Assembly (NCBI GenBank): GCA_964430735.1
Contig: CAYSFB010000008.1
Location: 12,870 to 76,869, forward strand
Direction of reading: 5' to 3'
Source of the DNA: an uncultured Planctomycetia bacterium
GTDB lineage: Bacteria; Omnitrophota; Gorgyraeia; 2-02-FULL-51-18; JAGOUK01
DNA: 64,000 nt
In this document: positions 10,306 through 63,371 of the stretch, piece by piece
Position numbering within the stretch: position 1 is the first letter of the stretch
Layout of the letters: every line of letters starts with the position of its first letter
Notes under the pieces: generated by a model
Seen by the model: only the letters and a program-made list of their open reading frames with translations
What the model was told of the DNA's origin: nothing
The model's database searches: none
Program-made: the position numbers and the translations under genes

Positions 10306-10375
10306 TTGGACTAAGGTTTGATTAAACGCGCTTAACTTGGGGGTGGGGAACTATCGCCTGTTCAACGGATATGCT

Positions 10376-11990
10376 ATGCCCGGCTTATTAAATAATCTAA
10401 TAAGACTAATTTCATTAGTTTTGGTGGCCGCGTTCGGCCTTCAGGAGGTCGCTTGGGCTGTGCCTGCTCCGGCCCCGGTTGCGCTGTCCGTTTCGCTTGC
10501 CGAGATCGTCCGGAATCCGGCGCTGTTGCCGATCCCGGAGGAGGTGATGACGGTTGAGTCTCAGATCGCCGGAACCAACGGCAAACTGATCGTGCTCGTC
10601 CGTGACGCGCACACGAACTTCGACGCGCAGATGAACCTCGCCAAGGCGCTCGAGTTTTGGATGGACAGGATGCCGCTGGACCTGGTGCTTTCGGAAGGCG
10701 CTTCGGGCGACGTGTCGGTCGACGATGCGGCCGCGCGCTCGGGGCTCGCGCCGGACGACCTCCAGCGCGCCGCGCGGCGGATGGTGTGGGACGGCCAACT
10801 CACCGGACATGAATACTGGAATCTGCTGTCTCCCAAAAAGTTCTCGATCGTCGGCGTGGAAGATCCCGGGCTTTATGGCTCGGGTCTGAAGACATTTGGG
10901 GAGCTGGCCGACACCCGGCATCGGATATCGAAGGATCTGACGTCCGCGTCCCGCGCGATCAATAAGCTCAAGACCCGCCTCTATCCCCAAGCATTGACCG
11001 AGTATGAAGCATCTATTGCTGCTGCCGACGGACAACCGGACGTTTTGAAGCGATCGGAAAAACTCATGGCGCTCGCCGCCGCTTCCGGCGTGGACGCGTC
11101 GGCAGAACGCTATTCCAATCTGGCCCTTCTGCGCCGCCTCGCCGAAGCCGAAAAGACCATCCGTTTTGACCGGTTGAACCAGGAATTTGCGCAATTGTCC
11201 GGAGTCGCCGGAGGAGAGTCGGAGAGCGGTTTGGAAAAAATGCCCGCACAGCCGGCCGGCCTTCTGTCGCGGATTGAAACGCTGCTGGATGCGGCCGACC
11301 GCAAGGGCTTGTCGCGCGCCAATGCTCCGGAATTGGCGTCCTATGCCGGTTATCTGCGCTTGTTGGGATCGCTGGATCACGCGGCTCTTGCGGATGAGTT
11401 GGATGCTTTGGAGCGGGAAGTGTACGCCAAGCTGCTCCCGGACGCGACGCTCATGACGCTGCGGGAACTGGATCTGTATGTCGCCCGTACGACGGACGGT
11501 GTTTCGGTCCAACTCGACCGTTCCGGTTACGACCGCTGGGCGCGGGTGCGAAAAGAAGCGCCGACCGTCTCCTGGCAGGCATTCCTCAACGATCTTTTGA
11601 TCGCGAACGGTTGCGCCGAAGACTTGATTCCGTATCGCGAAGAATTGGAGGGGGCCGCCGGTCCGATCGACGAATTTTATCAGAACGCTTCGGACCGCGA
11701 CCGCGCCTTCGCGGACAACGCCGAACGCGCGATGGAGTCGGGCGGCGCATCTGCCGCGGTCCTCGTCGCCGGTGGATACCACACCCTGAACCTGATCGAC
11801 CTTCTCGCGGCCGAAGGATTCTCGATCGTAGTCATGACGCCCCGCATTACAATTTCCACCGACCGTGATCGCTACGAAAAGATTGTTCTCGCCTCTGAGT
11901 CTGCTTTTATGCCGGCCCTCTCCCGGACGGCCGAAGCATCCGGTCGATTGACGCGGTACGCCCGCGGACAAACAGGACCTGCCGCCAAAC
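10376..11990 (+). other. Shared N-terminal domain of the giant-protein family (copy 1 of 3). It contains the His motifs 'QDAH' and 'GG[YF]HT' and is possibly Tiki/TraB/GumN-like.
   Basis: Alignable by eye to 37246..38830 and 50523..52100. Conserved blocks: 'GTNGKLIVLVRDAHTNFDAQMNLAKALE', 'LVLSEGASGDVSVD', 'AGGYHT...L...GFSIVVMTP' and 'T.D.D.YE'. Confidence 0.6.
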
Positions 11991-14900
11991 TCCTAAGCGT
12001 TCTATTGAGCATCGAGCCGGATGGAGCCCGGCTGGCCGGGACTGACGCGGCTGTCGCACACACCATCCGGATCCAGAGTTCCGGTGATCTGGAATCAGCA
12101 ATCGTCCGCCGGTTCGCGGTCTACAAAATGGGTTCCGCAGACGAAGCCGAACGGTTTGCCCGGGAATTGGCGCAGACCGTCAGAACCCGTTATGCCGCTG
12201 AACTGGCCCGTGACCGCGGCCGCATCGTGATCGTCACGCCGCCGAGGAATGTGGCGGGTTCTCCGATCACGGCCGTCGCGCGCAGCGTCGCCGCGCAGTT
12301 GGGATTGCCTTATGTCGAGACTTTTGAAGAACCGCTGGAACCCGGGCCCACTTATATCGGCGTGAGCAGCGCCCGGGTCCGCGAAAAACTCGCGCGCCAG
12401 ACGGGATTAATCCTCCGGCCCGAGCTGAATCTGGCCGGCAAGAAGATCCTGATCTTAGACGACATGATCACGACCGGCACGACGATCCGGGCGACCCAAA
12501 GCAAACTCGAAGAGCGTTTCGGGACCGAAGACTTCATGGTTGCGGCGATGGTCCGGCTGGAATCGTCCGACCCGGCGGACGAAAAAAACGTCAGCCGTTA
12601 TCTGGCGGACCGGAAAGACTGGGATGCTGTAGTGGAGATCCTCAACGACCCGCGCACCCGCATCGGCAAATCCGTCGTCGAAATGTTCACCGCACTCAAC
12701 CCGGACATGCGGATCGGTCTTCTGGCCCAGCTGACGGACGTCGCGGTCAAAAAACTCCTCCTGTCGACGATGCTGTTCGACCACGGAACCCGGTCCGTCG
12801 ATTGGATGCAGACGCTCTGGGTCCGGATCGCCCCTGTCGCCTGGTCGTCCTCCGCGCACCCGGCCCTCGAAGACGGGTATTGGTCCGAAGAATTCCAATC
12901 GTGGCTCGACCGTGCCGCCGCGTCCGAAGCGGACCCGGTGCTGCTGGAACAAATGATCCTGCTGCTGGAATTCGTCCATCGCCGCGAATCGATGACACGG
13001 CTTGTGACAATCGCGGACCGATTTAAGGGAAGCTTCGTCGGGACTCAGGCGACGGATGCGCTCAACCGCCGGGTGGAGCCGGTATCGGAAGACGACGTGT
13101 ACGACGTATTTGAGCATTTCCGGTATCCCAAAGGATTGCAATCCGGACTTGCGCGGCCGGACGGAGAGCGGACGATCAGTATGAAGTTCCTGGGAGAGCC
13201 GCGTCAGGAGCTGAACGCATCCTTCGCCGGGTCCGGCCGTGATGGGCATGTCTCAAGGATCGTGACCCTGACGCCGGATCCGGACGGGACCGTCATGGCG
13301 AAGCCCAAAGAGCGGATCATTTTTGACGCGTCCTGGATGAAGCTGAGGCCTGATATCGCCAATGGCGCGGTCAAAGGGATCTTTTTGAAAAGCGCGGGCG
13401 ACCGCAGCGGAGACGTCACGGCGCGCATCGTCGTCGACGACCGGATGCTCGATGTGTTTCCGGCCCGCGCCGGTAGGGATGGGATCATCGAGTGGAGAAT
13501 CGAGGGACTTTCGGAAGCGCTCCGCAGAAAATCCGCGACGAACCAATTCTTTTTCCGGAACTGGCAGTTCCAGCGCCGTCCGGAGGCGGTCGCCGGGGCC
13601 AGACTCGCGACGGGAGAGGCGGGCGCCGAAGCGGCGGAAGTCGCGGCGTTTGCCTTTACAGGAATCGACGAAGAAAAAATATACAGCGACCCCGACGCGC
13701 TTGAGGCCATCGCTCCTTTCCGCATCCGGGTGTTGAAAAACGGTCAGGTCCACTTCGGAAGCCGCGACCGGGGCCGTCTGGAGAAGAGCGTCATGGCTCA
13801 CACGAGCATTCCCGAAGGCGAATGGCTGACGGTCACTCCGGAGTACCGCCAGCAGCTGCCGGCCGGACTCGACGCCCAGTGGATCCTGCGTTTGAACCGA
13901 AAAAGCGGAGCGCCGTTGTATTACCGTTTCGTCAATACCGGAACTTTTTTGAAAAAGCTCGACCTCTCGGCTGGCGGATTCTTGGGATCGTTCTCGAGAA
14001 TCGGACGATATAAGGACCGGTCGCTGCCTCCGTTTCCCCAGGATGAATTCTCGGTGACGGTGCTCAAGGGCGGAAACGCCAATTTTGCGAGCTGGTCGGA
14101 TACGCAAGGTTCCGGAGATGCTGTTATCCGCCGTCTCAGGATACGGCTGGGCGACGAGTACGAAGGCCTGCCGGTTCGGGTCCGTAAGTTTTTTGTGAAT
14201 TCGCAGTTGAGCGAATGGCTGCTGCTGGTGCTCAAGCCTGCCACCGGAACCGCGCCGGAAACGGGTGATTCAATTCGCGGGCGCATGCTGGTTTACCGTT
14301 TTGTCCGTCCGGGCCGGATCGAGCAGATTAAACGCCACCCGTCCGGTGACGAGCAATGGTCCGCCTTTCCGGGGCTTGACCAGGCCGCTGCCCAGTTCGC
14401 TGTAACCGCGTCCCCGGGTGACGGGGCCCGGTTGGCCAAGTCGGGGAATGCGGATGACGGTATCGAGTTCGCCGAGAAATGGTTGAGGAAGTACGCGTTT
14501 TTGTCGAGGCTGCGGATGTCGGATGTGGAATGGCGCAAGGAGGAAGGGGAGAAGTTGGCGCGGGAAGCCGCCAAAGCTATTTCTGAAGTCCACGTGATGA
14601 TCCGGCATCGGTTGGCTTACGATGCTCAGGGGGTTGAGTTGAAGCCCGTCGTTTCGCTCCGCGGCCTGACGCTCGAGCCGAGCGTGGACTATTGGACGGC
14701 ATGGGCCTCCGCCGCATCCGACCACGGCGAGGAGCTTGGTGTTTCTGACGGATGGAAACAGGCGGTCCTGGGCGCCATCACCGTTTTGTCCTGTTATCAA
14801 GACAACCACGCCCATCTGAAGCATCAGGGCGGCGAGTCCCGCCGGAATTACTACCGGTCCGTGTTGGCGCTCGACTCCGCGCGGCTTGTTCTGGATCCGG

Positions 14901-28789: not shown

Positions 28790-28831
28790 AAGGCGATTGA
28801 CGGAGCGGTTCTGCGCGCCTAGACTTGACGC

Positions 28832-29320
28832 ATGCGCCGCTTCCAGCTTTTTGCTCTCACATTGATCCTGTCGATTGCCGCAACCGCGTCCGCCTCGGAC
28901 GAAGGCTCCAGCGGCGCCATCGAAACCTACTACCCCAACGGCGCGGTCAAATCCCGGGCGATCTACAAAGACGGCCGTCTGGAAGGACCCTATGAACTTT
29001 TTTCAAAAGACGGCCGGCTTCAGGAATTCCGGACGTACCGGAACGACAAGCTGAACGGTCCGGGCCGCCGGTATTTTGCCGATGGCCGGATTGCCGAAGA
29101 AGTGAGCTATGCCGACGGATTTTTGGACGGTCCCTACAAACAGTACGATTCCAACGGCAAGCGGCTGATCGAGGCCGTTTATCAGCGCGGCAAACCCGTG
29201 ACGCCGCTGCGCGTGTATGGCGCCAACGAGGCGTTGATCAGCGCAGAACATTATACGATCGGCGAAAAAGCTCCCAAGCCCGCGGCCCGTCCCGCCCCCA
29301 AAAAGCAAAAGCGTCCCTAA
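28832..29320 (+). CDS. Secreted MORN-variant repeat protein (YwqK-like)
   Basis: Signal peptide 'MRRFQLFALTLILSIAATASA', then repeated 'YxNGxxxxxxxYKDGRLEGPYELF / YRNDKLNGPGRRYFADGRI / YADGFLDGPYKQY' units typical of MORN_2/YwqK repeats. Confidence 0.55.
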   Translation: MRRFQLFALTLILSIAATASASDEGSSGAIETYYPNGAVKSRAIYKDGRLEGPYELFSKDGRLQEFRTYRNDKLNGPGRRYFADGRIAEEVSYADGFLDGPYKQYDSNGKRLIEAVYQRGKPVTPLRVYGANEALISAEHYTIGEKAPKPAARPAPKKQKRP

Positions 29321-29333
29321 ATATCCAGTTACG

Positions 29334-29339
29334 CTATAA
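29334..29339 (+). promoter_or_regulatory. Consensus -10 hexamer TATAAT in the AT-rich intergenic region upstream of the permease gene
   Basis: 'ttacgcTATAATactttttt' lies 49 nt upstream of ATG 29388. No clear -35 was found. Confidence 0.3.
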
Positions 29340-29387
29340 TACTTTTTTCCCAAAAAGTTAGTAAAAACAAAAAGTAAGATACATCCC

Positions 29388-31121: not shown

Positions 31122-31122
31122 T

Positions 31123-36695: not shown

Positions 36696-37136
36696 ATGGA
36701 TATTCTCAAACATCAACCCAAAACCCTCGCCCTTTTTGCGGCTTTTCTGACGGCTGTGACGCTGTCAGCCCCGCTTGCCTACGCGGAAGAATCTGCTGCG
36801 ACCGACGCCGTTCAGGCGTTGACCGATGCGATTACGGATGCGACCTCGGACTCATCGGATGAGACTCCGGAGTTCTCAAACCGCAAGGAACGCCGCGCGT
36901 ATTTTGAGAAGCTTCGAGCGGAAGACCCGGACAAATTCAGAGAAGTCATGAAGGCCAAGCGTGAACGCTGGGCAGAGAAGCATCCCGAAGCCGCCGAGCG
37001 CTTCAAGGACGGCAAGTATTACAGGCATCCTGGCGATGCCCGCGGTCCGCGCGGAGATCGCTGGGATGTGAACCTTGGTCCGGATCGTGGCCGTCCCGGT
37101 TTGCACCATCGCAAGCATCACCAAGACCGATACTAA
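36696..37136 (+). CDS. Secreted hypothetical protein
   Basis: Signal peptide 'MDILKHQPKTLALFAAFLTAVTLSAPLAYA'. AGGAGG lies 7 nt upstream of the ATG. The rest of the protein is charged/basic and low-complexity. Confidence 0.5.
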   Translation: MDILKHQPKTLALFAAFLTAVTLSAPLAYAEESAATDAVQALTDAITDATSDSSDETPEFSNRKERRAYFEKLRAEDPDKFREVMKAKRERWAEKHPEAAERFKDGKYYRHPGDARGPRGDRWDVNLGPDRGRPGLHHRKHHQDRY

Positions 37137-50370: not shown

Positions 50371-50407
50371 CTTCAAAGTAAACCAACAAAAAATATAGAA
50401 GGTCGCC

Positions 50408-50436
50408 TTGAAGGCAGCTTGTGCCGAGGGTATACT
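50408..50436 (+). promoter_or_regulatory. Candidate sigma-70-type promoter for giant gene 3 (TTGAAG-N17-TATACT)
   Basis: TTGAAG at 50408-50413, a 17-nt spacer, then TATACT at 50431-50436, about 85 nt upstream of ATG 50523. No terminator separates giant 2 from giant 3, so co-transcription is also possible. Confidence 0.35.
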
Positions 50437-50522
50437 CCCCACAAGTTATTTACTTTTTCACGGCAGTGCTTTGCCCTCTATTCAAGGGCTTATCACAAGT
50501 CATAAAACGACGGGATCATTTG

Positions 50523-53500: not shown

Positions 53501-56500
53501 TTTGTACGCGGAACCGCAGAACAGCTGGGACGCCGCCGTGGACCGCACGATACGCAACTTGAGCCGGCGGATTTCGCTGGAAAAGATCGAACAGGGACTT
53601 GAAGGCGAACTGCGGAACAGAAACCTGACCCTGATCTCCGCTGTAGGATCTCCCAACTGGGGCGAAGACGGTGCGACGATCGACTCGCAGCAACAGTTCG
53701 GAATTTTTGAATTCAATTACGCGACGGGAACCGGCCGGGTCGTTAAGGACTATAAGGACGCCGCCGGTTTGCTGGCAGACCGCGAGCTCACCGCGGGGTT
53801 GAAGCCGTCTGCAGCCGGCCGGATTCAGGAATTCGTCCAGCTGCGGTTCGCCAAAACGAACCGGCCGCTGACCCAAAAGTGGTCGGACCGGTCGTTTTGG
53901 GTCCGGATCGGCAATGGACCCGCCGGTTCCAGCGGCACGACGCTTCGGTACCTGTTCCGTTATGATCACGACCGGTATCTTATGACGGACCTCGACGGGG
54001 AAGAGGTTCTGGGCTATGCCGACCGCGACGCTGTGACCAACAGCGGATTCAAATCGTTGTCTGTGGACTTGAGAGAGTGGCTCCGGAACCGCGAGGCCTT
54101 CATTGCCGGTCAGCATCGCGCTTATCCGGATGCCGCCGCCAAGGATCCCAAGGCGCTTGATGCGATCACCGAGATGAACTTCATGGTCGCCGGAGACCGG
54201 AATAATCCCGTCTTCTTGATGTCCGCCCCGTATGAAGATACGGTGCCTTCCAACGGCGGCGTTTATCGTCCGCTGATTTACGCCCCGCACTGGGACAGGC
54301 ATTCCGACGGGACATTAAATGCCAGGCCGCTGCAGATCCACACGAATCCCGCCGCGATCGTCGCCGACATGGAAGGGGATGAGCGCAGCATCGGGAACGG
54401 AGTTGAGCGGCGCGTGGCGCCCCCCAAGCGCGCGGCCGCTTACGAGGCCGTTTCCAAGGCGCTCGAAGGCGGATACTACCTCCGTCAGGACGCGGCGCTG
54501 GTGCTGGGTAACGAGCAGCTGCGCGGAAATATCGAACTTTTTGAATACCGGGGCAAGGATGCCGCCAAGTCGGCCGATCAGATCCTGAACCTTCACCTGA
54601 GAAAAATCCGAGCGCACCAAAGCCGCTTCCGGTCGTCGACCTACGGCGAGATGGCGGAAAAGCTGAAGTCTGAGGATCCGGCCGAATGGCGGAATCTGGA
54701 TCGGCAAATCCGCGGCTGGTGGCGCAAGACCGGGGAAGCCAAACCTGCGGCTCCGGCCGTCCGGGCAGTCAGCGATAGTTTGCTCAACCTCAATGAGCAG
54801 CAGGTCAGCGGTCTGCTCAACCGCTACGCCGATGATACCGCCGAATCCGGCATCATCTACGAAGAATTAGCCGGCGGAAAAATTGTCCCTGCGTTCATCC
54901 GAATTCCCGGCTGGTCCTACTCGGCGCGCAACGTTCACTTCGCTTTACTCAAGCCTTTGGCCGAGGAGCTCGACCGCCGCGGCCTGGACAGCTCCAATGT
55001 GCTCAGTCCCCAGGTCCTCGCGCACCTGCTCGAAAAAGTCCGCCAGCAGCGCCTCGACCGCGCCCGCCCCGAAGGCGCGGGCGCGCGGTTTGCGGCGGCA
55101 TCCATCGTCCGCTTTGCGGCCGATTTGGCATTGGATCTTGCGGATGCGGTGCGAGCCCTTTGGGTCGGCTGGACCCTGCCGAAGGATCCCGCGCTTCAAA
55201 CAGAGAGATTCCTGGACCGGATCGAGCAGGAGCCCATCGTTCTGCAGGCAGAGAGCGAAGAACGCGTCATCGCCATGGCCAGACGGCATCTCCGCAGGCT
55301 TATGGCCGGCTATAGTCTGGAAGCCATGCAGCAGATTCCGGCGGGAATCACGCATACGATCGACCGGGACTCCCCCCGGACCCAGTATGGCCGTCCGGAC
55401 GCTCTCAACCCGGAACACATCATCACCGAGAATCATCCGATCCTGACGATCCGCCTCACGGACGCCGAGTCGTTGAGGCGTAAGGTCCGCAGGAATGGCG
55501 CCATCGTTTTCATCGGTCCTCCGGGAGCGGGCAAGGGCGAGCAATCCAAGTATCTCCGCAGGGAGTTCGGCGCCGCTGTGATCGGCCCCGGCAACTATTT
55601 CCGAGGTGTCGACAAGCTCAAGGAGCTGGGCGGCGTCGATGTTCCGAATGACCCCAATCTGGAGTACTTCGACGAAGCGGCGCTCACACAGATTTATCGC
55701 CACATCCAGGGCATCCTCGACCGCCAAAAAGCGGATCTCGCCGACATGAGAAGCGGCGGCCTCATGAAGGACGATTCCACGATAGAAATCATCAATTATC
55801 TTCTTTCCTTCGACGTCTTTGCCAATGCGCCCCTGCTGGTATTCGACGGTTTTCCGAGGACGACCGGGCAGTATGATGCCATTCTCGAAGGCCGGGTGAA
55901 GGTCGGGGGCCCCCAGGGGCGCGCGCTGAAGATCGGTGCGCATATCGTCATGAATTTTTCTTCCGATGCAGTGATGCGGGAGACGATTGAGCGGCGCTTT
56001 CGCCGCCCCGACCGAAGCGGCCGAGCCGACGCGGACAAGGAGATCCAGAGAGCCGAGACCTACAACCGTGAAACGCGGCCGATTGTCGACTTCCTTCTGA
56101 ATCGGCCCAACACCATCCGCCTCTTTGCCGACGACCGGCATCCGACAGATCCCGCCGCCAGCATCCAGCTCGCCACAAAGGAGCTGGAGGATGGACTTCG
56201 AGCCATTGTCAACGGCGCGCGGTTGGCAGAAGGCGTCGGAAATTCGGACTTTAATTTGCTGGTCCAACATGCTGGAACCCGGATTCGTGATACGGTAGAA
56301 GCGCTGCAGTTGTCGGACGAAAAAGGACTTGCCGACGCGGATCATGAGGCGGGGGAGCAGCTTAAAAAAGTATTCGAAGTTCTCTACGCGGGAAATGTGG
56401 AAATTCTACCGGCGGCCCCAGGTCACCATACGGACATCAAGTTCATCAAAGGAGAGAACCCCAGGCGGCAGCTGCACATTGAGTTTCATCCCGCCGATGC

Positions 56501-59500
56501 GCAGAATGCGGAGCGCGAAATGGCCCGCCAGCTGGTGCGACTCGGAATGCTTCTTTTGGTTCTAGACCCATCGGTGCATAAGACCTCCGAGGCCATCCTC
56601 AATCTTCAGAGAGATCGGTTCATGAAGGCGGATATTTTGCTCACGCGCACTCGGTCATCGCACCAAGACCCGCCTTTTTCCCGCACCGACAAGATGAAGA
56701 TCGAACGCGAGATGTATCAGATCATCCAAATGACGGATGAGGAGCGTGCCGCGCATGAGGCGATGATCAAGGTTGCGCAGGCCGAAGACCGTGCCAAAGC
56801 CGAAAGACAGCGCCGGTTGGATGTCGCCGCCGGAAAAATTGAACCCCACGTTTCCTCGGCTCTCAGCCTGTACGTGAGTCAAACCACGCATATGATCGAA
56901 AAGACCCGGAGTCTAGGGGTTCTTGAGATTTCCTGGATGGCGTATGCGCCGGACGTAGTTAAAGTGATGATGATTTCGGACAGCGCGGGCCGGCAGGAAG
57001 CGCTCGCGGATCTCATGGCATCCATCATCAATGCCACGATGCAGGCGGCCGCGAAGTCCGGGCTTTGGGAAACGCCGGGACGGGGTGCCAAGTTCGATCC
57101 GATCCAGGTGCAGGAGTTGTTGGAGAACGTGGCTCAGGGATTGATCAATTTTGCACGGTCGCGCCGTGCGGCGGGCGAAGAACCCACGGATATCAAGACC
57201 CAGCTTCTTTCCGCGGCCGATTTGATTGTGCCGAACGAACAAATTTACTCCTACCTCCGTACGCCACGGTTCAACCGGTGGCTGCGTGATGCCATCGACA
57301 AGCGAAGCGTAAAAACGAATGCCTCGGATACAGTTGCGAGTGCCTCAGGGGCGGCAGAAACGGTCAAGCAAATCATGGGAGCCGTCGCGATGGCGGCGGC
57401 CAGGCCCGATTCGGCCGGTGTTCTGCTCATCGGAAGCACGCGGACCGGTTCTAAGACCCAGCTCGCGTTGCCAGCGCCATCGAGTTCGATCGCCTCGGCA
57501 TCACCCGGGTCCACATCGGCAGCCGGCCGCGCTCAGGCCGGCATGCCCGCGGCGGGATTGTTGGATTTTGTCGGAGACGCGAGAGGATATGTTTTTTCAT
57601 TCGAAGAGGGATACACGGCCAACCCTGACATTCTGGTCCCGGCGATGTCTCACGCGCTTCAGGCCGCCAAGACGGTCGAGCAGTGGCTCGCGCAGCCCTC
57701 GGACGAGTTTATCGGTGGACTCAGAATTTCTGAGCTTCTTCAAGCCGAAGACGGGCGGGTGGGACAGATCGGCCGCTGGCTCGCCTATGTGGCTTCGCTG
57801 TATTTTTACCCGAACACGTCGGCTTCCGCTGACGACGGTCGCCGCAGTCCGGGCACGATCGAAGCGGCCTGGAACGCGTTCAGGAACCGCTCCAAACTTG
57901 TCACTGACGACACCTTGATTGAAGCCATCGAGACGATGAAGAGCGTCAAGAACAATCCGACCGTCTACAGCAAAACGGAGCTGTCCTTCGCCTGGTACGT
58001 CGCGTTCTTGATCGCTTCCTATCTCGAGCCTCTTCAGGAGTCAGAAAAAAAATCCGCGGCCGAAGTGATCGATAAGACTCTCGTTGAAATGGGCGAAAGA
58101 CCCGATTACGCGGTTTTTCAATTGATCCGGGTGATCGTGGTTCAGATGCAAATGAAAGCCATGAAGTTCGACACGTCCGTTCAAACGGAAAAGCCCAAAG
58201 CGCGGCAGGCGGCATCCGCTGCGGACACATCCTCAAACCCGCAGTTTGAGCCGATCGCCGAAACCGCCGTGGAAGCTCCCCGAGGCGTTCAGGCCTTGAG
58301 GGTGACCAATACGGAAGCCAGCTTTGAGGGATTTTTGGCAAGAGTCTCAGAAATCGGTTCGTCCGCCGCCGACGCGCTGGATCAGGAAGACACAAAGATC
58401 GCGATCCCCGTGCTGCGTTTACTCATCGGCGGACATCTTGATGCCGATCCTGACGACAAGACGGGCGACTACCAAACCACGCTCCGCAACGTCAAACGCA
58501 AGACACATCCCGACATCGTCACCAAGGACGAGACGCTGGATGCCACCGCGCGCGAAACGCTGGTGGCCATGCACAAGGCCCTGAACGTTATCGAGACCTA
58601 CGTTGATTCTCCTTTGAACCTCAAGGAAACCAGGTCGGCGGTCAAGGAGCTGCGTCAAACGGTTTCCAAGCATCTTCAGTGGAAGTCCGAGATCACTCAG
58701 CGGCTGGCGCAGTCGGTCGAGGAGCGGCACCGGGAGCTGATCGAAGCGTTGAAGCAAATTGGCGAGCAGCAGAATTCCGGCATGAAGAACGTTGGCGAAA
58801 AACTGGACGCATTGACCCGTCAAATAGACGAACTGGTCAAAACGGGCCGGTCGAACTCCGAGCAGCTGAGCACTTTGTCTCAGCAGGTCCAGGAAATGAA
58901 GCAGCAGATCCGGTCGTCGGGAGAAACTCCGTCCCAAGCCGGCGCGCGGTTTGCGCAGAGCGACGCGGCTGTTGTTAAAGTGTTGTATGCGGCGCCGGTG
59001 ACTGAGAAGACCCTGAAGGCTGTGAATGCGGTGCGGACGATCGCTCAGTCGTTCGGCGGTGCGGCAGAGTTGGTTGAAGAATTTTCTGAACAAGCAGATG
59101 AGGCGTTTATTCGGGCGGCGATCGAGAAACACCGTCCCGCGATTGCAGTTTTCCGTTCTAACGTCACGTTCACTCCCGAGCTGATTGCGTTCGCCAAGCA
59201 ACACGGCGTGCAGGAACTTCTGCGGGCGGGAGCGGGTTACGACAACGTGGACTTCGAGGCCTCCGTGCGCGAGCAGATCAGTCTTGCGACCACCGGCGGC
59301 AACGCCGAGGCGGTCGCGTATTTGAGTATGCGGTTCTTGCTGGCGGCCCTCGGCGGTCAGGAAATGACCGCTTCAGACGTCGATTTTTCGAGCGATCCGG
59401 CTTGGTCCGAAGTCGGACATGATCCCGCAGACTTCACCAAGGCGCTGGCCTCCTCCGAAAAGGCGGGTCGCGGCGTGATGCCGGCCGATCAGTCGGCCGC

Positions 59501-62500
59501 GGTGTTCAAGAACCTCTCGGCGGACCAGGTCAAAGAACTTTTTGCGAAGCTCGAAGGAAAAACAATCAGCCTTCTCGCCTTCGGACCCGTCGCACAGGCG
59601 TTCGCCGCCAAACTCCAAAAGGTCAGGGAATTGACCGGTGTCAACTTCACGGTCGTCGCGTACTCGCCGGCTCTCGCGTCCGGAGACCCGTCCCGCGCCA
59701 AGGCCGCGGCCGAGCTCGGAGTGCAAATCGCGAAGACCAAACAGGAAGCGATCAGCGCGGCCAACGTCCTTTCGATCCATTATTTTGACAAAAATGATCC
59801 GGTGACCGCCGCCGAATTGGCCGGTAACGCGGGCTTGGAAGTCGTTCTGAACACCGCTCGGCTCCACTCGCTCGATCTCAAGGAAGCCCTGCCGGCGCTG
59901 CTGGACCGCGGCGTGCGCGTCTACACCGACGCCGATCTCGCCAAAAAGGGCGCTGAGCTGCCGGAAGTCGCGGAGTTCAAGACCAAACACCCCAATTATG
60001 CGCAGAACCTGATCCTGGTTCCGCACATCGGCGCGTTCACGCAGACCGCGCTCGACGGAGTCGAAGACGCCCTGCGCGACGCTCTCATTCTGTCGCTTGC
60101 CAAGCTCACCGACGAAGAGCCGACGCTCGCGGTGACGCCCGGCTTCACGCTCAACATCGTGAATAAGATTCCGCTTCTGTCGCCGACCCAAATTGAATGG
60201 AAGAAAGGTTATGATGCCGCGCGAAAAATCATCGCCACGCGGTCGATGCATGCAACTTACGGCCGCAATGCGGACATCGCGGCCCGCGACTATGGCAAGG
60301 CGGGCGATCCGCTCAGCCAGGCCTACTGGTCCGGCAAGGCCGCCGGACACCGCTCGATGGCCAGCGGCGGCCGGTACACCGCTTCCGGCGCGCGCCTCGC
60401 CTCCAAAGCCGCAACCGCCAAGTTCCTGGCTGCACTCGAGCCCTATCGGATTGCCGGTACAGAAAAGGCCCGAGCCATCCAAGGCAACTACACAAAAGCG
60501 GCCAACGAGAACCTAAATAGTTACGTGCCGCGTCCTAAAGGCAACGAATCGGGCCGCTATATCGCGCTCGACTTCGGCGGCACCAACTTCCGGGTGCTGA
60601 TCGTCGATATGAAGAACGGCAAGGTCATCCGTAAAAAAATCCACCCCTTGACGATTCCAAAGCAATTGATCACAAGCGATTCCAGCCAGCTCTTCGGTTT
60701 TATCGCCCGCGAAATCAAAAAAGTCATGGCGAAGGAAAAGTTGAGCTTGGACACCGTTCAGAACCTCGGATTTTCGTTCGCGTTTCGCGTGAAGCAGATC
60801 TCCATCGACCGGGGGACCCTGGATCATTGGACGAAGGAATTTAAAGTCAAGGGCGTCGTGGGCGAGGAAGTGGTCGGGCTCCTGAACCAGGCGCTCGAAG
60901 ATGAAGGTGTGAAGAACATCCGCGTCAGAGCTCTCGTGAACGACGTGATCGGAACGCTCGTGACGCGGCCAGATGCCGCGCTTGCCGCGATTCTGGGCAC
61001 CGGCACGAACGGCGGATATTGGGACGAGCTGACTGGATTCGCCGTGAACACCGAATGGGGTGCATTCAAAGGGGCCTGGAAAGTCGCAGCCACCGAAGCG
61101 GACCGGATCGTGAACCGCCGCTCCGAGAAACCGGGTAAACAGCTCTTCGAAAAGATGGTGAGCGGAAAATACCTCGGCGAAATCGCCAGGACCCAAATCA
61201 ATCTGTTGCGCAAGGACGGATTCTTGAAAGGCAAAGCATTACCGCGCCTGACCCGTCAGGGCGGTGTCACGACGACGATGCTTTCGAAGATTCTCGAGGA
61301 CAGGACCAAAACACTGGCCCAGGTCGGCCGGTATTTCCCCGGAACGTCCGCGAACGAGCGGAAAGTGATCCGTGCCGTGGCTCACGCCCTTTTCACCCGT
61401 TCAGCCGACCTCTTCGTCGAAGCGGTTTACGCCAACCTCAAGCTTTCCGGCGCGTACGCCAAGTCCGACGAACTGATCGTCGCGATCGACGGGTCGGTGT
61501 ACAGCAAATCGAAGTTTTATCGGCGGCAGGTCCGCCGCGCGACCCGTATTCACATGGCGCGTTGGGGATCCCGCCCGGTGCGCTATGTCCAAACGACCGA
61601 CGGCAGCGGCCTCGGTACGGCCCGCATCGCGGCCATCGCTTCCGCGGCCGCGCGCCTTGCGAATTCGAACCCGGCTGATTGGCGCATTGACGCGGTGGAG
61701 CATCTCAACAATGCCATTCGCCGGATCAAGGCCTCGGCCGCCCAGCTCAGAGCCCAGGCCCTGATACTGGAGAATGTGAAGGATAGGGATGCCAACTTCA
61801 CTGCCATAAATGCGGACATACTGGACCATCATGCGGTCATTCTGAGTAAATTGCTGGGGATCTTGGACAAGACCGGTCATCAGCATCAAAAGGCCACGGA
61901 TCCGGTCGTGCGATTAATGATCCAGGAAGATTCAAACAGAATTCTCCCCGCGCTTGAATCGATGGCTTCCAATCTCAAGGGGCAGATGTCCATCTTGGCT
62001 GATGCGCCGATCAATACTGGGGAGCCCGCGTGGCGGACCGGGCTCAAGGACGCCATGATCGACCTGATTCTGTTGGAGGCTGTCATATCCAACACCTTGA
62101 TCAACAAGAGCGAGACCGTCCCCGTGCAGGGCGAGTGGAGCGTTACGGTGTTGAGCCATGGGCCCAAGCAGCATGTGTTGATGATCCGGTCCGGCGACAA
62201 GATTGTCTGGCGGCATTACGTTTGGCTTGGGGATTATGATGATATCTCCATTTTCACGAAGCGGAATCCGGCCAAGCTGGTTGCGGGGGCGCTGTTAAAA
62301 AATTATAAGACCTGGTCGGTTGTTTCGCCTGTGAATGAAGCCGGGTTCGCTGAGGCCGTACAGGGGATTCTTGTGGCTGAGTTCGGAATGGCGCTTCGCG
62401 GCACGTCCGGCGCCCGACTGGCTAGCACCGGTAGTCTGGCGATCGCGCAGGGCGTTCTCGAACCCTATTTGAAGAATGTTGCGGCAGCGATCAATCTGCG

Positions 62501-63371
62501 CGGACAGGCTGAATTGGCCCTGTCGGATGGCGAGGTCGCCGTCGTGATCGATTTAATTCAGAAGGGCGCCCAAGTGAGTTGGAAGCGCGAAGGCGAAACG
62601 GAGTGGCGGCTCGTGATCGAAGATCAAAACAGCGGCGCCATCAAGAAGATCTGGGCACCGGTGGTTCAGGAGACCCGTCTGAGCGCCGAGAACGCGCTCA
62701 AAGCGGACCTGGCGGTGTTCGAACTTCTCCTGGCAGCCGCCAAGGAATTGAATCTTCCGATCCGGCCGGTCAATTACCGGTTGAACGTGACGCAGATGCT
62801 CTCCGCGATCGACGCCGAGAACCGCGCCGACATTGTCGAAAAATTAAAGGTGGTTTTGACCCGCGCGCACGAGCAGGGCTTCGGATCGTTTTTCTATGCG
62901 GCCGAGGACGCCGCGTGGGGTCTGCCGCAATTCGAGCGTGCCAAGGACGCCTCACGTCCCGGCCAGGACGCGCCCGAAACGACGCTGCGCAACCTCAAGG
63001 CCTTGAACCCGGAAGGGGAGATCGGCTACGGGATTTTTTACAAGCAGAACAAGAACGAGTTCATACCTCTGATGAGTACGCTGCTGGCTCAGAACCTGCT
63101 GACGCAGATCCTCGGTCAGCCGGCCGACACTCAGGAGGCCAAGGACGCCAGGTCGAAGGCCCTGGCCGCCCTGGAGCCCATCTTCCAGAAGCTCACCCGT
63201 TCGACCATCCGTCTGAGCGGCAGCGAAGCCTTCTTTACCGGAGTCCCGGTGAACGCCGACGCGGACGCCTACGACCCGTACTCGGTCAAAGGCCTCTCGC
63301 TCCGCGGCTACATCGACCTCCTGGTCTACCTCCAGGGCCTGCGCAAAGCAACGGTCGACACAGCCGCCTAA
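50523..63371 (+). CDS. Giant multidomain protein 3 (about 4,280 aa). It has the paralogue-shared signal peptide and N-domain, followed by embedded adenylate-kinase-, D-2-hydroxyacid-dehydrogenase- and hexokinase-like modules and a coiled coil.
   Basis: Uninterrupted ORF. The track places the start at GTG 50421. ATG 50523 is preferred because it gives a signal-peptide-like 'MKALGVSRLRVTSFILCMTFVAQDAAFAAP'. 'SKTLFLLQDAHTNESGQINLANALRQ' and 'VLVTGGFHTPNLKELLKRKGISYVSIRP' align with giants 1 and 2. Confidence 0.85.
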   Translation: MKALGVSRLRVTSFILCMTFVAQDAAFAAPSPMLPQPASAFTIPQVAFRLPESVAQIDDGYAAPNASKTLFLLQDAHTNESGQINLANALRQILPSEGITHVFTEASQGDMSVGYFKKVFEPKVMEPVAMSYLRKGVLKGDEYLGLTSDLNFTIWGVEDPSLYNAALEAYKKVADQRTAVLGYLDRLTRTASVLKEALYGPDLKSVDSARAAYLKGDKPLTDYFEALHVMAKKTGVYLPQYRHLSRLKAIRSLESRVDFKAAAAEQDKAIQSLPQQVQSDLRAASRKSRSPFRIGGDDHAADKGFYALLEASLRDASGAETASAKTGSYPELFKYFSYLKASKKLDAQGVLNEIEALERDVFGRLAAADDAALLVKLSRNLESLTRMIELKLTPDEFADYLRNEPSFDIRIISGFFNKKIMDLAKHYDRTVLLEGEYSEASAAAKKFYELALDRDRAFIAGTLKKMDAAKLDKAVLVTGGFHTPNLKELLKRKGISYVSIRPQVSHETNTDRYEDLLFRQLASAQKAARAATSARASSSGQHAAMTAHIEMPIPAVQAARLAMVRDFADAAQADNQTVPADLGGALAAARLAVRSGGRSAVLESLEERDYLTPVVPLDPATGVDTGYATEFREEIAAAQGIYNPGLINDTSSTDIPQKVSEFTNRYRASFFRMDKDYNYLAEDNKYAWLRFNRGRIPAENGGGPSGRFDPGPRNLSINPYAAMPVNSQIRLKHIDRIQQSLPDEIPVDVRIDTNSGELILTDVDGLESSRIPLLPELADKAEESASDEALRITDADGWTRGPFTILIIKGERGGEAEQPVATIFIKSDRSKGVVDAVLVRTADLSQMVLDPAFDERVDEGRLPIGISTGRSGSNASVRMRPDEIHDLIILFEKDQTRLKTNALTPPVVDDVMSQGAEFWESAFPAGVDAPGLPPAAVDRVFNGLGDAGDAMSDALKRLTSGARLAAEWTRRTLLKWAAVSAGWGAVLAPFKKLLYAEPQNSWDAAVDRTIRNLSRRISLEKIEQGLEGELRNRNLTLISAVGSPNWGEDGATIDSQQQFGIFEFNYATGTGRVVKDYKDAAGLLADRELTAGLKPSAAGRIQEFVQLRFAKTNRPLTQKWSDRSFWVRIGNGPAGSSGTTLRYLFRYDHDRYLMTDLDGEEVLGYADRDAVTNSGFKSLSVDLREWLRNREAFIAGQHRAYPDAAAKDPKALDAITEMNFMVAGDRNNPVFLMSAPYEDTVPSNGGVYRPLIYAPHWDRHSDGTLNARPLQIHTNPAAIVADMEGDERSIGNGVERRVAPPKRAAAYEAVSKALEGGYYLRQDAALVLGNEQLRGNIELFEYRGKDAAKSADQILNLHLRKIRAHQSRFRSSTYGEMAEKLKSEDPAEWRNLDRQIRGWWRKTGEAKPAAPAVRAVSDSLLNLNEQQVSGLLNRYADDTAESGIIYEELAGGKIVPAFIRIPGWSYSARNVHFALLKPLAEELDRRGLDSSNVLSPQVLAHLLEKVRQQRLDRARPEGAGARFAAASIVRFAADLALDLADAVRALWVGWTLPKDPALQTERFLDRIEQEPIVLQAESEERVIAMARRHLRRLMAGYSLEAMQQIPAGITHTIDRDSPRTQYGRPDALNPEHIITENHPILTIRLTDAESLRRKVRRNGAIVFIGPPGAGKGEQSKYLRREFGAAVIGPGNYFRGVDKLKELGGVDVPNDPNLEYFDEAALTQIYRHIQGILDRQKADLADMRSGGLMKDDSTIEIINYLLSFDVFANAPLLVFDGFPRTTGQYDAILEGRVKVGGPQGRALKIGAHIVMNFSSDAVMRETIERRFRRPDRSGRADADKEIQRAETYNRETRPIVDFLLNRPNTIRLFADDRHPTDPAASIQLATKELEDGLRAIVNGARLAEGVGNSDFNLLVQHAGTRIRDTVEALQLSDEKGLADADHEAGEQLKKVFEVLYAGNVEILPAAPGHHTDIKFIKGENPRRQLHIEFHPADAQNAEREMARQLVRLGMLLLVLDPSVHKTSEAILNLQRDRFMKADILLTRTRSSHQDPPFSRTDKMKIEREMYQIIQMTDEERAAHEAMIKVAQAEDRAKAERQRRLDVAAGKIEPHVSSALSLYVSQTTHMIEKTRSLGVLEISWMAYAPDVVKVMMISDSAGRQEALADLMASIINATMQAAAKSGLWETPGRGAKFDPIQVQELLENVAQGLINFARSRRAAGEEPTDIKTQLLSAADLIVPNEQIYSYLRTPRFNRWLRDAIDKRSVKTNASDTVASASGAAETVKQIMGAVAMAAARPDSAGVLLIGSTRTGSKTQLALPAPSSSIASASPGSTSAAGRAQAGMPAAGLLDFVGDARGYVFSFEEGYTANPDILVPAMSHALQAAKTVEQWLAQPSDEFIGGLRISELLQAEDGRVGQIGRWLAYVASLYFYPNTSASADDGRRSPGTIEAAWNAFRNRSKLVTDDTLIEAIETMKSVKNNPTVYSKTELSFAWYVAFLIASYLEPLQESEKKSAAEVIDKTLVEMGERPDYAVFQLIRVIVVQMQMKAMKFDTSVQTEKPKARQAASAADTSSNPQFEPIAETAVEAPRGVQALRVTNTEASFEGFLARVSEIGSSAADALDQEDTKIAIPVLRLLIGGHLDADPDDKTGDYQTTLRNVKRKTHPDIVTKDETLDATARETLVAMHKALNVIETYVDSPLNLKETRSAVKELRQTVSKHLQWKSEITQRLAQSVEERHRELIEALKQIGEQQNSGMKNVGEKLDALTRQIDELVKTGRSNSEQLSTLSQQVQEMKQQIRSSGETPSQAGARFAQSDAAVVKVLYAAPVTEKTLKAVNAVRTIAQSFGGAAELVEEFSEQADEAFIRAAIEKHRPAIAVFRSNVTFTPELIAFAKQHGVQELLRAGAGYDNVDFEASVREQISLATTGGNAEAVAYLSMRFLLAALGGQEMTASDVDFSSDPAWSEVGHDPADFTKALASSEKAGRGVMPADQSAAVFKNLSADQVKELFAKLEGKTISLLAFGPVAQAFAAKLQKVRELTGVNFTVVAYSPALASGDPSRAKAAAELGVQIAKTKQEAISAANVLSIHYFDKNDPVTAAELAGNAGLEVVLNTARLHSLDLKEALPALLDRGVRVYTDADLAKKGAELPEVAEFKTKHPNYAQNLILVPHIGAFTQTALDGVEDALRDALILSLAKLTDEEPTLAVTPGFTLNIVNKIPLLSPTQIEWKKGYDAARKIIATRSMHATYGRNADIAARDYGKAGDPLSQAYWSGKAAGHRSMASGGRYTASGARLASKAATAKFLAALEPYRIAGTEKARAIQGNYTKAANENLNSYVPRPKGNESGRYIALDFGGTNFRVLIVDMKNGKVIRKKIHPLTIPKQLITSDSSQLFGFIAREIKKVMAKEKLSLDTVQNLGFSFAFRVKQISIDRGTLDHWTKEFKVKGVVGEEVVGLLNQALEDEGVKNIRVRALVNDVIGTLVTRPDAALAAILGTGTNGGYWDELTGFAVNTEWGAFKGAWKVAATEADRIVNRRSEKPGKQLFEKMVSGKYLGEIARTQINLLRKDGFLKGKALPRLTRQGGVTTTMLSKILEDRTKTLAQVGRYFPGTSANERKVIRAVAHALFTRSADLFVEAVYANLKLSGAYAKSDELIVAIDGSVYSKSKFYRRQVRRATRIHMARWGSRPVRYVQTTDGSGLGTARIAAIASAAARLANSNPADWRIDAVEHLNNAIRRIKASAAQLRAQALILENVKDRDANFTAINADILDHHAVILSKLLGILDKTGHQHQKATDPVVRLMIQEDSNRILPALESMASNLKGQMSILADAPINTGEPAWRTGLKDAMIDLILLEAVISNTLINKSETVPVQGEWSVTVLSHGPKQHVLMIRSGDKIVWRHYVWLGDYDDISIFTKRNPAKLVAGALLKNYKTWSVVSPVNEAGFAEAVQGILVAEFGMALRGTSGARLASTGSLAIAQGVLEPYLKNVAAAINLRGQAELALSDGEVAVVIDLIQKGAQVSWKREGETEWRLVIEDQNSGAIKKIWAPVVQETRLSAENALKADLAVFELLLAAAKELNLPIRPVNYRLNVTQMLSAIDAENRADIVEKLKVVLTRAHEQGFGSFFYAAEDAAWGLPQFERAKDASRPGQDAPETTLRNLKALNPEGEIGYGIFYKQNKNEFIPLMSTLLAQNLLTQILGQPADTQEAKDARSKALAALEPIFQKLTRSTIRLSGSEAFFTGVPVNADADAYDPYSVKGLSLRGYIDLLVYLQGLRKATVDTAA
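55490..56110 (+). other. Adenylate-kinase-like module inside giant protein 3
   Basis: P-loop 'AIVFIGPPGAGKGEQSKYL' (55505-55546) and the NMP-binding 'LLVFDGFPRTTGQYDAIL' (55833-55862). Confidence 0.65.
59130..60120 (+). other. D-isomer-specific 2-hydroxyacid dehydrogenase-like module inside giant protein 3
   Basis: 'IAVFRSNVTFTPELIAFAKQHGVQELLRAGAGYDNVDFEA' (catalytic-domain G.G.DN.D motif) and 'LILVPHIGAFTQTALDGVEDAL' (the C-terminal xPHIxxxT motif). Confidence 0.5.
60530..61640 (+). other. Hexokinase module inside giant protein 3
   Basis: 'GRYIALDFGGTNFRVLIVDMKNGKV' (hexokinase signature LDLGGTNFRV, 60558-60605), 'ALVNDVIGTLVTRP...AILGTGTNGGYWDE', 'EWGAF', 'FEKMVSGKYLGEIAR' and 'VAIDGSVYSK'. 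These occur in the order and spacing expected for the hexokinase fold. Confidence 0.75.

Follow-up and report, generated by a model that had tools for sequence, protein, structure and literature searches.

Giant genes are well established in the Omnitrophota (Seymour et al., 2023, PMC10066038; West-Roberts et al., 2023, bioRxiv 10.1101/2023.11.21.568195). Post-translational cleavage of their products has been speculated upon; West-Roberts et al. describe the cleavage points as unknown, and this kept them from splitting the giants for structure prediction. More recently, Nielsen and Lui defined a "multi-enzyme metabolic cluster" class, which carries hexokinase, methyltransferase and kinase domains and mostly bears signal peptides or transmembrane (TM) helices (Nielsen and Lui, 2026, bioRxiv 10.64898/2026.06.07.730766). 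In this study, we analyzed a 64-kb stretch of DNA (hereafter, the window) from an uncultured Planctomycetia bacterium placed by GTDB in the Omnitrophota (contig CAYSFB010000008.1, positions 12,870 to 76,869). The window holds three giant genes, named here G1, G2 and G3. Their products share a conserved N-terminal domain (the head) that resembles hydrolases of the TIKI type, and a pentapeptide, G-A-R-L-A in its commonest form, recurs in the variable cargo that follows. Two features are apparently undescribed, the TIKI-fold hydrolase head and the genome-specific G-A-R-L-A punctuation at module boundaries. Nothing in Nielsen and Lui or in West-Roberts et al. refers to a conserved TIKI-like head, to a motif that recurs between modules or to sites of polyprotein cleavage. 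Our literature search found no prior description of an Omnitrophota Tiki head, polyprotein or motif cleavage site, and "GARLA" returned author names only.

The proteins of the window resemble the multi-enzyme class in several respects, as they come from the same phylum, bear a signal peptide and carry many distinct enzyme Pfam families along one polypeptide. The tiling of families that characterizes this class was found, behind a signal peptide, in G1 (at least six families) and G3 (three to four), while G2 is almost entirely without annotation. Unlike the members of that catalogue, which have at least 10,000 aa, the proteins described here have 6150, 4374 and 4316 aa, and the longest of the best 150 representatives of the head family reaches 7364 aa. 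Other published Omnitrophota giants have at least 10 or at least 30 thousand aa (kaa) and many TM helices, together with HEAT, glycosyltransferase, dockerin, C39 or SecA domains. None of these Archaeovorin- or Dockerin-type Pfam families was found in G1-G3.

MARTX toxins are likewise large secreted proteins with unrelated enzyme modules, which a built-in protease frees at short sites, as we propose here. Moreover, the MARTX effector RRSP has a TIKI-type fold and a 2His/2-acid site like that of the head (PMC6254334). In contrast, RTX-type repeats, the C80 domain and type I secretion belong to MARTX proteins and are absent here; the TIKI-like domain of the giants is a conserved N-terminal head and not a cargo module, and the giants combine a Sec-type signal, the candidate site G-A-R-L-A and metabolic-type enzyme cargo. 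Viral polyproteins, such as the replicases of picornaviruses, flaviviruses and nidoviruses, join in one open reading frame (ORF) an embedded protease and many functional units, between which lie short conserved sites that co-evolve with the protease. Unlike these, the genes described here are cellular and chromosomal, with many paralogs per genome, their products have Sec targeting, the candidate protease has an unrelated fold, and cleavage is a proposal.

The head domain and its family

Pairwise BLASTP aligned the three proteins over their N-terminal ~540-570 aa only, with 31% identity between G1 and G2 (E 2e-66), 28% between G1 and G3 (E 7e-41) and 30% between G2 and G3 (E 1e-54). No further high-scoring segment pairs (HSPs) at E<1e-3 were found among them, nor any internal repeats. 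These results bear out an earlier sequence-only reading of the window, which had described three same-strand giant ORFs that are alignable in their N-terminal region only and consist of a conserved signal peptide and head followed by a variable, enzyme-rich cargo; the enzyme Pfam families do lie downstream of the head, and the three frames run without internal stops.

To characterize the head, residues 33-570 of G2 were modeled with AlphaFold2 (AF2; pLDDT 86.5, pTM 0.82). The model shows a small alpha/beta core with strands at model residues 41-47, 54-59, 86-89, 138-141, 447-452 and 470-476, interrupted by an all-helical insertion of ~300 residues. The predicted core has the parallel beta-sheet flanked by helices that characterizes the TIKI/TraB/erythromycin-esterase/ChaN superfamily; structures named as having this fold are the Bacillus erythromycin-esterase-like proteins 2rad and 2qgm, ChaN (2g5g), EreC (6xcq), the type III effector HopBA1 (5t09) and a TraB-family protein (8bqs). 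A Foldseek search of the PDB with the head model gave no significant match. Independently of the model, 13 of 48 heads matched PF04187 ("Tiki superfamily, ChaN"; best E 0.0039) and five matched DUF5694, always below the gathering score, whereas a profile search of PDB sequences with the same 48 heads returned spurious coiled-coil matches only. The head thus goes unrecognized by Pfam at gathering thresholds, by NCBIfam (no matches) and among PDB sequences.

Active members of the superfamily have a 2His/2Glu site, which in RRSP comprises E3900-x-H3902, E3930 and H4030, the corresponding pair in Bcr135 being H85/E113 (PMC6254334). In two alignments of the family, one of 48 heads and one of 23, D-x-H, the Glu at +28 and the His of GG[YF]H do not vary. 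The Glu sits exactly 28 residues past the His of D-x-H, a spacing equal to that of RRSP and Bcr135, and in the G2 model the putative catalytic residues fall just past strands 54-59, 86-89 and 447-452. Residue conservation and the predicted fold make it probable that the head is an active hydrolase and belongs to the TIKI/TraB/Ere superfamily. It differs from the TIKI/TraB/PrgY/erythromycin-esterase/ChaN proteins in that no head passes a Pfam gathering threshold, the helical insertion is present and the first acid is Asp (D-A-H) and not Glu. In addition, no known member of the superfamily heads a multi-kiloresidue cargo. The conserved blocks pointed out in the sequence-only reading (DAH[TS]N, EG/EA, GG[YF]HT and T.D.D.YE) are all present and correspond to invariant columns in 48 family members. 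Its view of the head as a secretion or anchoring device is too narrow, since the head combines the predicted fold of a TIKI/TraB/erythromycin-esterase-type hydrolase with all the catalytic residues of such an enzyme.

The helical insertion of the G2 model (residues ~145-440, window ~37774-38660) gave Foldseek matches to the ClyA-family alpha-pore-forming toxins SmhA/B, AhlB, ClyA, YaxA and MakE. These matches have a probability below 0.15, are not significant and are not treated as evidence; they could be a lead for a role in membrane interaction.

The extent of the family was determined by an exhaustive hidden Markov model profile search of cluster representatives (50% identity) with the head, at a cutoff of E<=1e-3. 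This type of search was needed because a word-indexed homolog search with the head profile gave one match only. We found 8,843 representatives at E<=1e-3 and 4,263 at E<=1e-30. In all of the best 150 of the 8,843, which have lengths of 476-7,364 aa, the head is N-terminal. A scan of one genome per GTDB species, in which the window's own genome is absent, yielded 284 relatives. Most of the 80 loci listed of these 284 come from metagenome-assembled genomes titled Omnitrophota or Omnitrophica, and the remaining ones bear the title "uncultured Planctomycetia", which makes up a large minority, or Eisenbacteria. Multiple paralogs occur in several genomes, isolate nzgw292 supplying eight of the listed loci, and the heads closest to those of the window are 44-51% identical. 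Judged by sequence, G1-G3 are paralogs in a very large family without a name, centered on the Omnitrophota and comprising thousands of proteins. The cargo of the relatives is mostly without annotation, with occasional methyltransferases, a DnaJ domain or a hexokinase.

Three side observations concern the relatives. A C-terminal module of ~350 aa without Pfam match is common to 28 of 130 long representatives (e.g., P0037, P0059, P0075 and P0105), and G1-G3 do not have it. At three loci (L018, L060 and L074) the ORF of the head stops after ~510-750 aa and a motif-rich ORF goes on in another frame; these splits could be sequencing frameshifts, pseudogenes or genuinely separate head and cargo genes. 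Finally, nuo (complex I-like) genes, assigned by eye from N-terminal sequences as NuoA-, NuoH-, NuoI-, NuoJ- or NuoL-like, adjoin the head-family gene at ~14 of 79 loci (e.g., L018, L062 and L072). This adjacency, which is not seen in the window, suggests conserved synteny of one orthogroup.

From plausible ATG starts, the N-termini of G1, G2 and G3 show a K/R-containing n-region, a hydrophobic core and an A-x-A site. The same pattern was found in 105 of 110 representatives with a complete N-terminus, typically ending in A-x-A followed by A-P, so the signal peptides noted in the sequence-only reading are plausible. A hydropathy scan detected at most one internal TM-like segment each in G1 and G2 and none in G3. 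By default we infer export of the whole chain, because a signal peptide is present and internal TM helices are essentially lacking in G1-G3. The true start of G1 is probably ATG 10376, and that of G3 ATG 50523, rather than the TTG/GTG opening each ORF. The public calls for G1 (P0004, 6109 aa) and G2 (P0002) begin further downstream and lose all or most of the signal peptide, which automated annotation would therefore miss. An alternative G1 call also exists (P0151, 6121 aa), and the G3 call (P0003) retains the signal peptide.

A recurring pentapeptide between cargo modules

The pattern [GA]AR[LFM][AS] occurs 11 times in G1, six in G2 and nine in G3. These 26 occurrences compare with ~3 expected from shuffles (Poisson P ~6e-16). 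In an unbiased count of the pentamers of the three proteins, GARLA came first (14 vs 0.12 expected), with AARLA at 8 vs 0.18 and GARFA at 3 vs 0.03. All 26 sites lie in the frames of the giant ORFs, and the six-frame translation of the window contains one other, in a shadow frame. Since codons vary from copy to copy, it is the peptide that is under selection, rather than a repeat in the DNA. A DNA-level repeat as the source of the motif was accordingly rejected, as the codons differ and a single frame is involved, and internal translation starts were rejected because there is no Met enrichment after the motif.

The motif is not restricted to the window. GARLA also leads the pentamer count over 160 kaa of homologous ORFs (145 vs 0.78 expected, in 38 proteins), outnumbering even the signature words that each head contributes once per protein, and the motif is kept in relatives from genomes with a G+C content of 0.43-0.67. 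Its logo reads G (79%) or A; A; R; L (82%), M or F; A (81%) or S, with a weak preference for A/S at -1 and otherwise no conservation of the flanks. The 150 family representatives carry 1.4 motifs per 1000 aa, vs 0.15 in all the remaining ORF segments of the loci retrieved, where the non-family occurrences are mostly tails or split continuations of head-led genes. The lack of colinear similarity between the cargos, noted in the sequence-only reading, thus holds for alignments, but the cargos do share this pentapeptide.

The placement of the motif is also distinctive. No motif falls inside a Pfam envelope in G1-G3 (probability by chance ~0.04). In G3, a hexokinase at aa 3359-3744 is bracketed exactly by the motifs at 3323 and 3743, and the same bracketing is seen in the relative L066, with the hexokinase at 1007-1395 between motifs at 962 and 1403. 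By its motifs, which include all those for catalysis and for binding of ATP and glucose, the G3 hexokinase is complete and catalytically intact. It spans residues 42-450 of the 455 of human glucokinase in an alignment and retains DFGGTNFRV, LGFSFAF, WTKEFK, VNDVIGT (with the catalytic Asp), GTGTNGGY, NTEWGAF, FEKMVSGKYLGE, DGSVY and DGSGLG. Among 150 representatives, the first motif lies directly past the head (median position 597), and the segments between motifs have a median of 322 aa (interquartile range 183-549), lengths that fit single proteins or domains. The post-head linker of G2, with its two motifs, is predicted to be disordered (pLDDT 28-51), and hydrophobic residue content drops around motif sites.

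Cargo homology between family members comes in motif-bounded blocks that occupy differing positions in different proteins. For instance, G3 3753-4001 (segment 3743-3997) matches 581-817 of homolog P0009 (segment 569-813), the C-terminal modules of these two proteins are 47.5% identical (G3 4002-4316; window 62424-63368), and the order of modules in P0009 differs from that in G3. In the blocks shared by G3 with P0009 and with P0111, motif aligns with motif. When 199 cargo HSPs were examined, a motif was found no more than 30 aa away from 42% of the block starts and from 32% of the block ends, vs 10% of random positions. Moreover, Tat-type signals follow some motifs by 3-10 aa, inside proteins that are led by a Sec signal: at aa 995 of G3 (GARLA-AEW-TRRTLLKWAAVSAGWGAVLAP; aa 995-1020, window 53403-53480), at aa 4258 of P0133 and at aa 3569 of P0112, including NRRDLLKVAAGLGVVFGLAAG. 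Such signals are rare (3 of 742 sites passed an automated screen, and the G3 case was spotted by eye). Because of their position, they suggest that in these modules the motif was set before the N-terminus of a former protein. Altogether, the different embedded enzyme-like modules described in the sequence-only reading are confirmed as an enzyme-rich, variable cargo, but the chains are not featureless strings, as the motif punctuates the module boundaries. We hold with high confidence that the head and the motif-punctuated modules characterize one family.

The identity of the fourth residue depends on the genome. In DATJEK (five paralogs) it is Leu at 38 sites and never Met or Phe, in CAYSKO (three paralogs) Leu once, Met 17 times and Phe never, in CAZHID (six paralogs) Leu seven times, Met 13 times and Phe never, and in the three paralogs of the window Leu 24 times, Met never and Phe three times. 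The contrast between DATJEK and CAYSKO is significant (Fisher P 2e-13). The CAYSKO heads are 53-57% identical to a DATJEK head vs 50-53% to their own paralogs; therefore, the sites within a genome shift together, independently of head phylogeny. In other lineages the motif is replaced by GTRL[AS] (13 copies in P0086 and seven in P0078) or by GSR[AV] (P0042 and P0010). Such genome-specific flavors would be expected if the motif were a recognition site evolving in concert with a reader common to all the sites. That the motif serves as a recognition site for some reader is, in our judgment, quite probable.

Proposed processing of the chain and its alternatives

We propose that the giants would be Sec-targeted modular polyproteins, made of a cleavable signal peptide, the ~520-aa head and a variable string of modules, several of them intact enzymes. 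The modules would fold independently, and the flexible linkers between them would bear G/A-A-R-L/M/F-A/S as a processing site. Cleavage at the pentapeptide would free the head and the individual modules, the head being the likeliest protease, in cis or in trans, and the freed enzymes would then have their site of action either outside the producer or inside the cell of a host or prey. TIKI trims the N-terminus of Wnt3a next to Leu-Ala, and the CPD of MARTX cuts after Leu. On this basis we presume, as a lead only, that the bond between Leu and Ala or that between Arg and Leu could be the scissile one.

The head is the prime protease candidate because it is a putatively intact TIKI-type hydrolase, is always present and is directly followed by the first site, and because the motif is tied to head-led genes. 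The parts of the proposal deserve different degrees of confidence, since the docking, flavor-column and neighbor-gene tests tied nothing to the head. That recognition of the motif leads to proteolytic cleavage is a step towards which we lean slightly. The statement that the giants are modular polyproteins which are exported and cut at the motif, with the head as the likeliest protease, appears evenly poised. Taken unconditionally, the assignment of the proteolytic activity to the head is tentative. The broadest formulation is somewhat doubtful, namely that these are phylum-wide, Sec-exported, self-processing polyproteins in which a TIKI-fold head cuts G-A-R-[LM]-A and active metabolic and regulatory enzymes, among them hexokinase, adenylate kinase, phosphoribosyltransferase, methyltransferases and kinases, are freed outside the producer, plausibly into or onto a host or prey.

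Several points weigh against processing by the head. Cleavage itself is something we infer. Three features have no obvious use in processing: tandem motif pairs lie 15-60 aa apart past the head (G2 573/596 and G3 592/622), the last motif of G1 is 22 aa from the C-terminus, and the long members P0070 and P0107 have no recognizable motif. No column of the head alignment segregates with the Met/Leu flavor, an underpowered comparison with only four strict Met-type heads. An AF2 model of head plus linker left the motif undocked, with the linker at low confidence and disordered, and the genes beside the family genes at 79 loci include no conserved protease or secretion gene, only housekeeping genes such as nuo. 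The superfamily, which includes site-specific proteases (TIKI and RRSP), also holds esterases (Ere) and a non-enzymatic haem binder (ChaN). Finally, Sec export of ATP- and NAD(P)-dependent enzymes is physiologically puzzling; action in a host or prey cell, an N-terminus that serves only as an anchor, or moonlighting are possibilities.

Some of these points would be accommodated if a separate trans-acting protease (e.g., an Arg-specific S8/kexin-like, C11 or C39 enzyme with its gene elsewhere) cut the motif and the head did another job, such as hydrolyzing a host or prey molecule as an esterase or other hydrolase, binding haem or tethering. The flavor follows the genome and not head phylogeny, for which one shared reader per genome is the simplest explanation, and the lack of a co-varying head column and the undocked motif point the same way. 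A role of S8 and C39 domains in the processing of Omnitrophota giants has been proposed by West-Roberts et al. (bioRxiv 10.1101/2023.11.21.568195), and the window itself contains an ORF that ends in an S8 subtilase domain. However, the 79 loci share no protease gene, the motif is restricted to head-led ORFs with its first copy directly past the head, and every aligned head keeps the full set of catalytic residues. We regard a trans-acting protease as an unlikely but serious alternative. The S8 ORF (window 1-1050, plus strand) runs off the 5' end of the window; the subtilase Pfam match has E 1e-18, NCBIfam gives weak mycosin/PatA-like matches, and YD-repeat-like text, GYTYDSKSRKIKTIF, stands in the visible upstream part. 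This ORF is a possible candidate for a protease acting in trans, and may be what is left in the window of a further large secreted protein.

We assign a similarly low probability to the view that the giants stay uncleaved, as tethered multi-enzyme strings whose motif either lets a scaffold or a partner on the cell surface dock, or is post-translationally modified at its Arg. A short motif without conserved flanks in disordered linkers is typical of docking and modification motifs, multivalent binding explains the tandem pairs and the copy near a C-terminus (22 aa away) at least as well as processing does, and genome-specific flavors are compatible with any co-evolving reader. Furthermore, Nielsen and Lui see comparable Omnitrophota giants as membrane-associated multi-enzyme assemblies (bioRxiv 10.64898/2026.06.07.730766). 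Against an uncleaved string stand the invariable attachment of a hydrolase head with a predicted intact catalytic site, the motifs that mark the exact ends of complete enzymes and of shuffled units, and the Tat signals just past some motifs, which would need a free N-terminus.

It is very improbable that the giants are divergent members of a known toxin or adhesin class, be it MARTX/RTX, Rhs/polymorphic toxins or Archaeovorin- or Dockerin-type giants. The MARTX-like logic of a large secreted protein with several enzyme modules and the head fold common to RRSP speak for such a relationship, but the defining features of these classes are absent, and membership is thereby refuted. In G1-G3 we found no GGxGxD or RTX Pfam matches, no match to peptidase C80 (the inositol-hexakisphosphate-activated cysteine protease) at E<0.01, no YD motifs and no Rhs or PT-HINT Pfam matches. 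Core motifs and Pfam families of nonribosomal peptide synthetases and polyketide synthases (NRPS/PKS) were also absent. In place of a type I secretion arrangement there are an N-terminal Sec-type signal, housekeeping flanks and no secretion genes conserved across loci, and there is no immunity-gene layout, the next gene after G2 being G3 and that after G1 a MORN-repeat ORF. The HEAT, glycosyltransferase, dockerin, C39 and SecA content of other Omnitrophota giants, and their many TM helices, are lacking as well. The absence of RTX, YD and NRPS/PKS markers asserted in the sequence-only reading was thus confirmed by motif scans and Pfam alike, and its MARTX-like comparison is apt as an analogy for a multi-module secreted protein, although the giants fall outside the RTX/MARTX, Rhs/YD and NRPS/PKS families. 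Effector delivery is one conceivable role of the giants.

Least probable of all is an artefactual origin of the giant ORFs, be it through chimeric assembly, as pseudogenes or as open frames without coding function, for although ~60% G+C yields long spurious ORFs on other strands and frames and head and cargo are in different frames in L018, L060 and L074, the frames stay open over 13-18 kb with many bona fide domains in frame, thousands of homologs have the same architecture, an independent assembly holds the identical protein, and the peptide motif is kept while its codons vary.

Genomic setting and meaning

The window features are collected in Table 1. G1 and G2 are 8.46 kb apart, and the gap between G2 and G3 is ~150 nt if G3 starts at ATG 50523, with one promoter-like match and no terminator-like site found in it; the spacing given in the sequence-only reading is therefore accurate. 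A chimeric assembly is unlikely because identical G2 and G3 proteins were called, with the same neighbors, on an independent contig of the Logan assembly. The giant proteins also occur, without names, in an NCBI record. The flanking genes are ordinary chromosomal housekeeping genes (PntA/B, RsmB, PepF, an SF1 helicase, ABC-F, DUF502, an FMN reductase and RluA), and one neighboring gene is 53% identical to a gene of an Omnitrophota metagenome-assembled genome. Together with the relatives of the heads, this gene points to an Omnitrophota-lineage source of the window.

Three smaller genes of the window deserve mention. The MORN-repeat ORF (162 aa; window 28832-29320, plus strand) lies 43 nt 3' of G1. 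In the Logan record, a 146-aa gene without Pfam match lies ~110 nt upstream of G2, roughly at window 36696-37136. Amid the housekeeping genes, an ORF at 4820-5449 (plus strand) encodes a nucleotidyltransferase domain of the Pol-beta type, matches DUF7342 weakly, and may be a small MNT-like toxin-antitoxin or defence component.

As for the cargo, G1 also contains HTH-like (helix-turn-helix-like) stretches in addition to the families listed, and a PDB sequence search with G2 gave no match, its cargo being without annotation beyond one methyltransferase.

Table 1. Features of the giant genes in window coordinates; all are on the plus strand.
Feature	Residues	Window position	Basis or remark
G1 giant gene	6150 codons	10337-28789	ORF scan; database calls P0004 and P0151 start elsewhere
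G1 predicted Sec signal peptide		10376-10459	Sequence pattern; MPGLLNNLIRLISLVLVAAFGLQEVAWA followed by VP
G1 head, TIKI-superfamily-like		10460-12016	BLASTP, family alignment
G1 putative catalytic residues	D90/H92; E120; H482	10604-10612; 10694-10696; 11780-11782
G1 GARLA	563	12023-12037	First site past head
G1 phosphoribosyltransferase	618-764	12188-12628	Pfam PF00156, E 2.7e-7
G1 GARLA	1087	13595-13609
G1 GARLA	1363	14423-14437
G1 GARLA	2620	18194-18208
G1 protein-kinase/APH-like catalytic-loop fragment	2891-2938	19007-19150	PF00069, E 8.8e-7, below gathering score
G1 GARLA	3136	19742-19756
G1 S-adenosylmethionine (SAM) methyltransferase	3223-3326	20003-20314	PF08241, E 1.2e-6; in 285-aa segment 3141-3425
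G1 GARLA	3426	20612-20626
G1 RmlD/MAT2B-like NAD(P) reductase	3567-3835	21035-21841	PF04321, E 1.3e-36; PDB 4ktt, 2ggs
G1 APH-type phosphotransferase	4031-4133	22427-22735	PF01636, E 5.3e-6
G1 GARLA	4534	23936-23950
G1 sigma-70 region 4-like HTH	4838-4888	24848-25000	PF04545, E 3.8e-5, just under cutoff
G1 GARLS	5449	26681-26695
G1 GARLA	5722	27500-27514
G1 GARLA	5832	27830-27844
G1 AARLA	6129	28721-28735	22 aa from C-terminus
G2 giant gene	4374 codons	37246-50370	ORF scan; ATG start; identical protein P0002 on independent Logan contig
G2 predicted Sec signal peptide		37246-37344	Sequence pattern; ends in FLRRLISISLCLSFGAMELAWA followed by GP
G2 head		37342-38955	The head modeled; ~300-aa all-helical insertion splits alpha/beta core
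G2 putative catalytic residues	D92/H94; E122; H488	37519-37527; 37609-37611; 38707-38709
G2 GARFA	573	38962-38976	Linker predicted disordered
G2 AARLA	596	39031-39045
G2 AARLA	2732	45439-45453
G2 SAM methyltransferase	2802-2897	45649-45936	PF08242, E 6.9e-6; in segment 2737-3026
G2 AARLA	3027	46324-46338
G2 GARLA	3713	48382-48396
G2 AARLA	4016	49291-49305
G3 giant gene	4316 codons	50421-63371	ORF scan; P0003 = aa 35 to end
G3 predicted Sec signal peptide		50523-50606	Sequence pattern; MKALGVSRLRVTSFILCMTFVAQDAAFA followed by AP
G3 head		50610-52190	BLASTP, family alignment
G3 putative catalytic residues	D109/H111; E139; H516	50745-50753; 50835-50837; 51966-51968
G3 AARLA	592	52194-52208
G3 AARLA	622	52284-52298
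G3 GARLA	995	53403-53417	Tat-signal-like TRRTLLKWAAVSAGWGAVLAP 3 aa later
G3 GARFA	1554	55080-55094
G3 adenylate-kinase-like	1695-1893	55503-56099	PF00406, E 1.5e-8; PDB ADK matches
G3 GARLA	1932	56214-56228	Aligned with motif in homolog P0009
G3 GARFA	2841	58941-58955	Aligned with motif in homolog P0111
G3 D-2-hydroxyacid dehydrogenase-like	2906-3204	59136-60032	PF00389, PF02826, sub-threshold
G3 GARLA	3323	60387-60401	N-terminal bracket of hexokinase module
G3 hexokinase/glucokinase	3359-3744	60495-61652	PF00349, E 1e-45; PF03727, E 1e-42
G3 AARLA	3743	61647-61661	C-terminal bracket of hexokinase module
G3 GARLA	3997	62409-62423	Precedes C-terminal module 4002-4316

Giant genes fill a large share of the small genomes of the Omnitrophota, which are widespread but uncultivated and are presumed to live as parasites or predators. 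In this context, the head and the boundary motif together predict exact products and name the residues to mutate, and the motif allows multi-kiloresidue proteins without annotation to be cut into foldable and searchable units. If cleavage is true, the giants would represent a new bacterial polyprotein strategy and a new pair of protease and site, with possible biotechnological use. If the polyprotein reading is true, they would be a cellular counterpart of viral polyproteins, and the motif positions would provide the first cleavage-site map for Omnitrophota giants. If there is no cleavage, the motif would still be a new linear recognition element that co-evolves with a reader. Either way, ~8,800 sequence clusters without a family name would gain a structural and architectural annotation.

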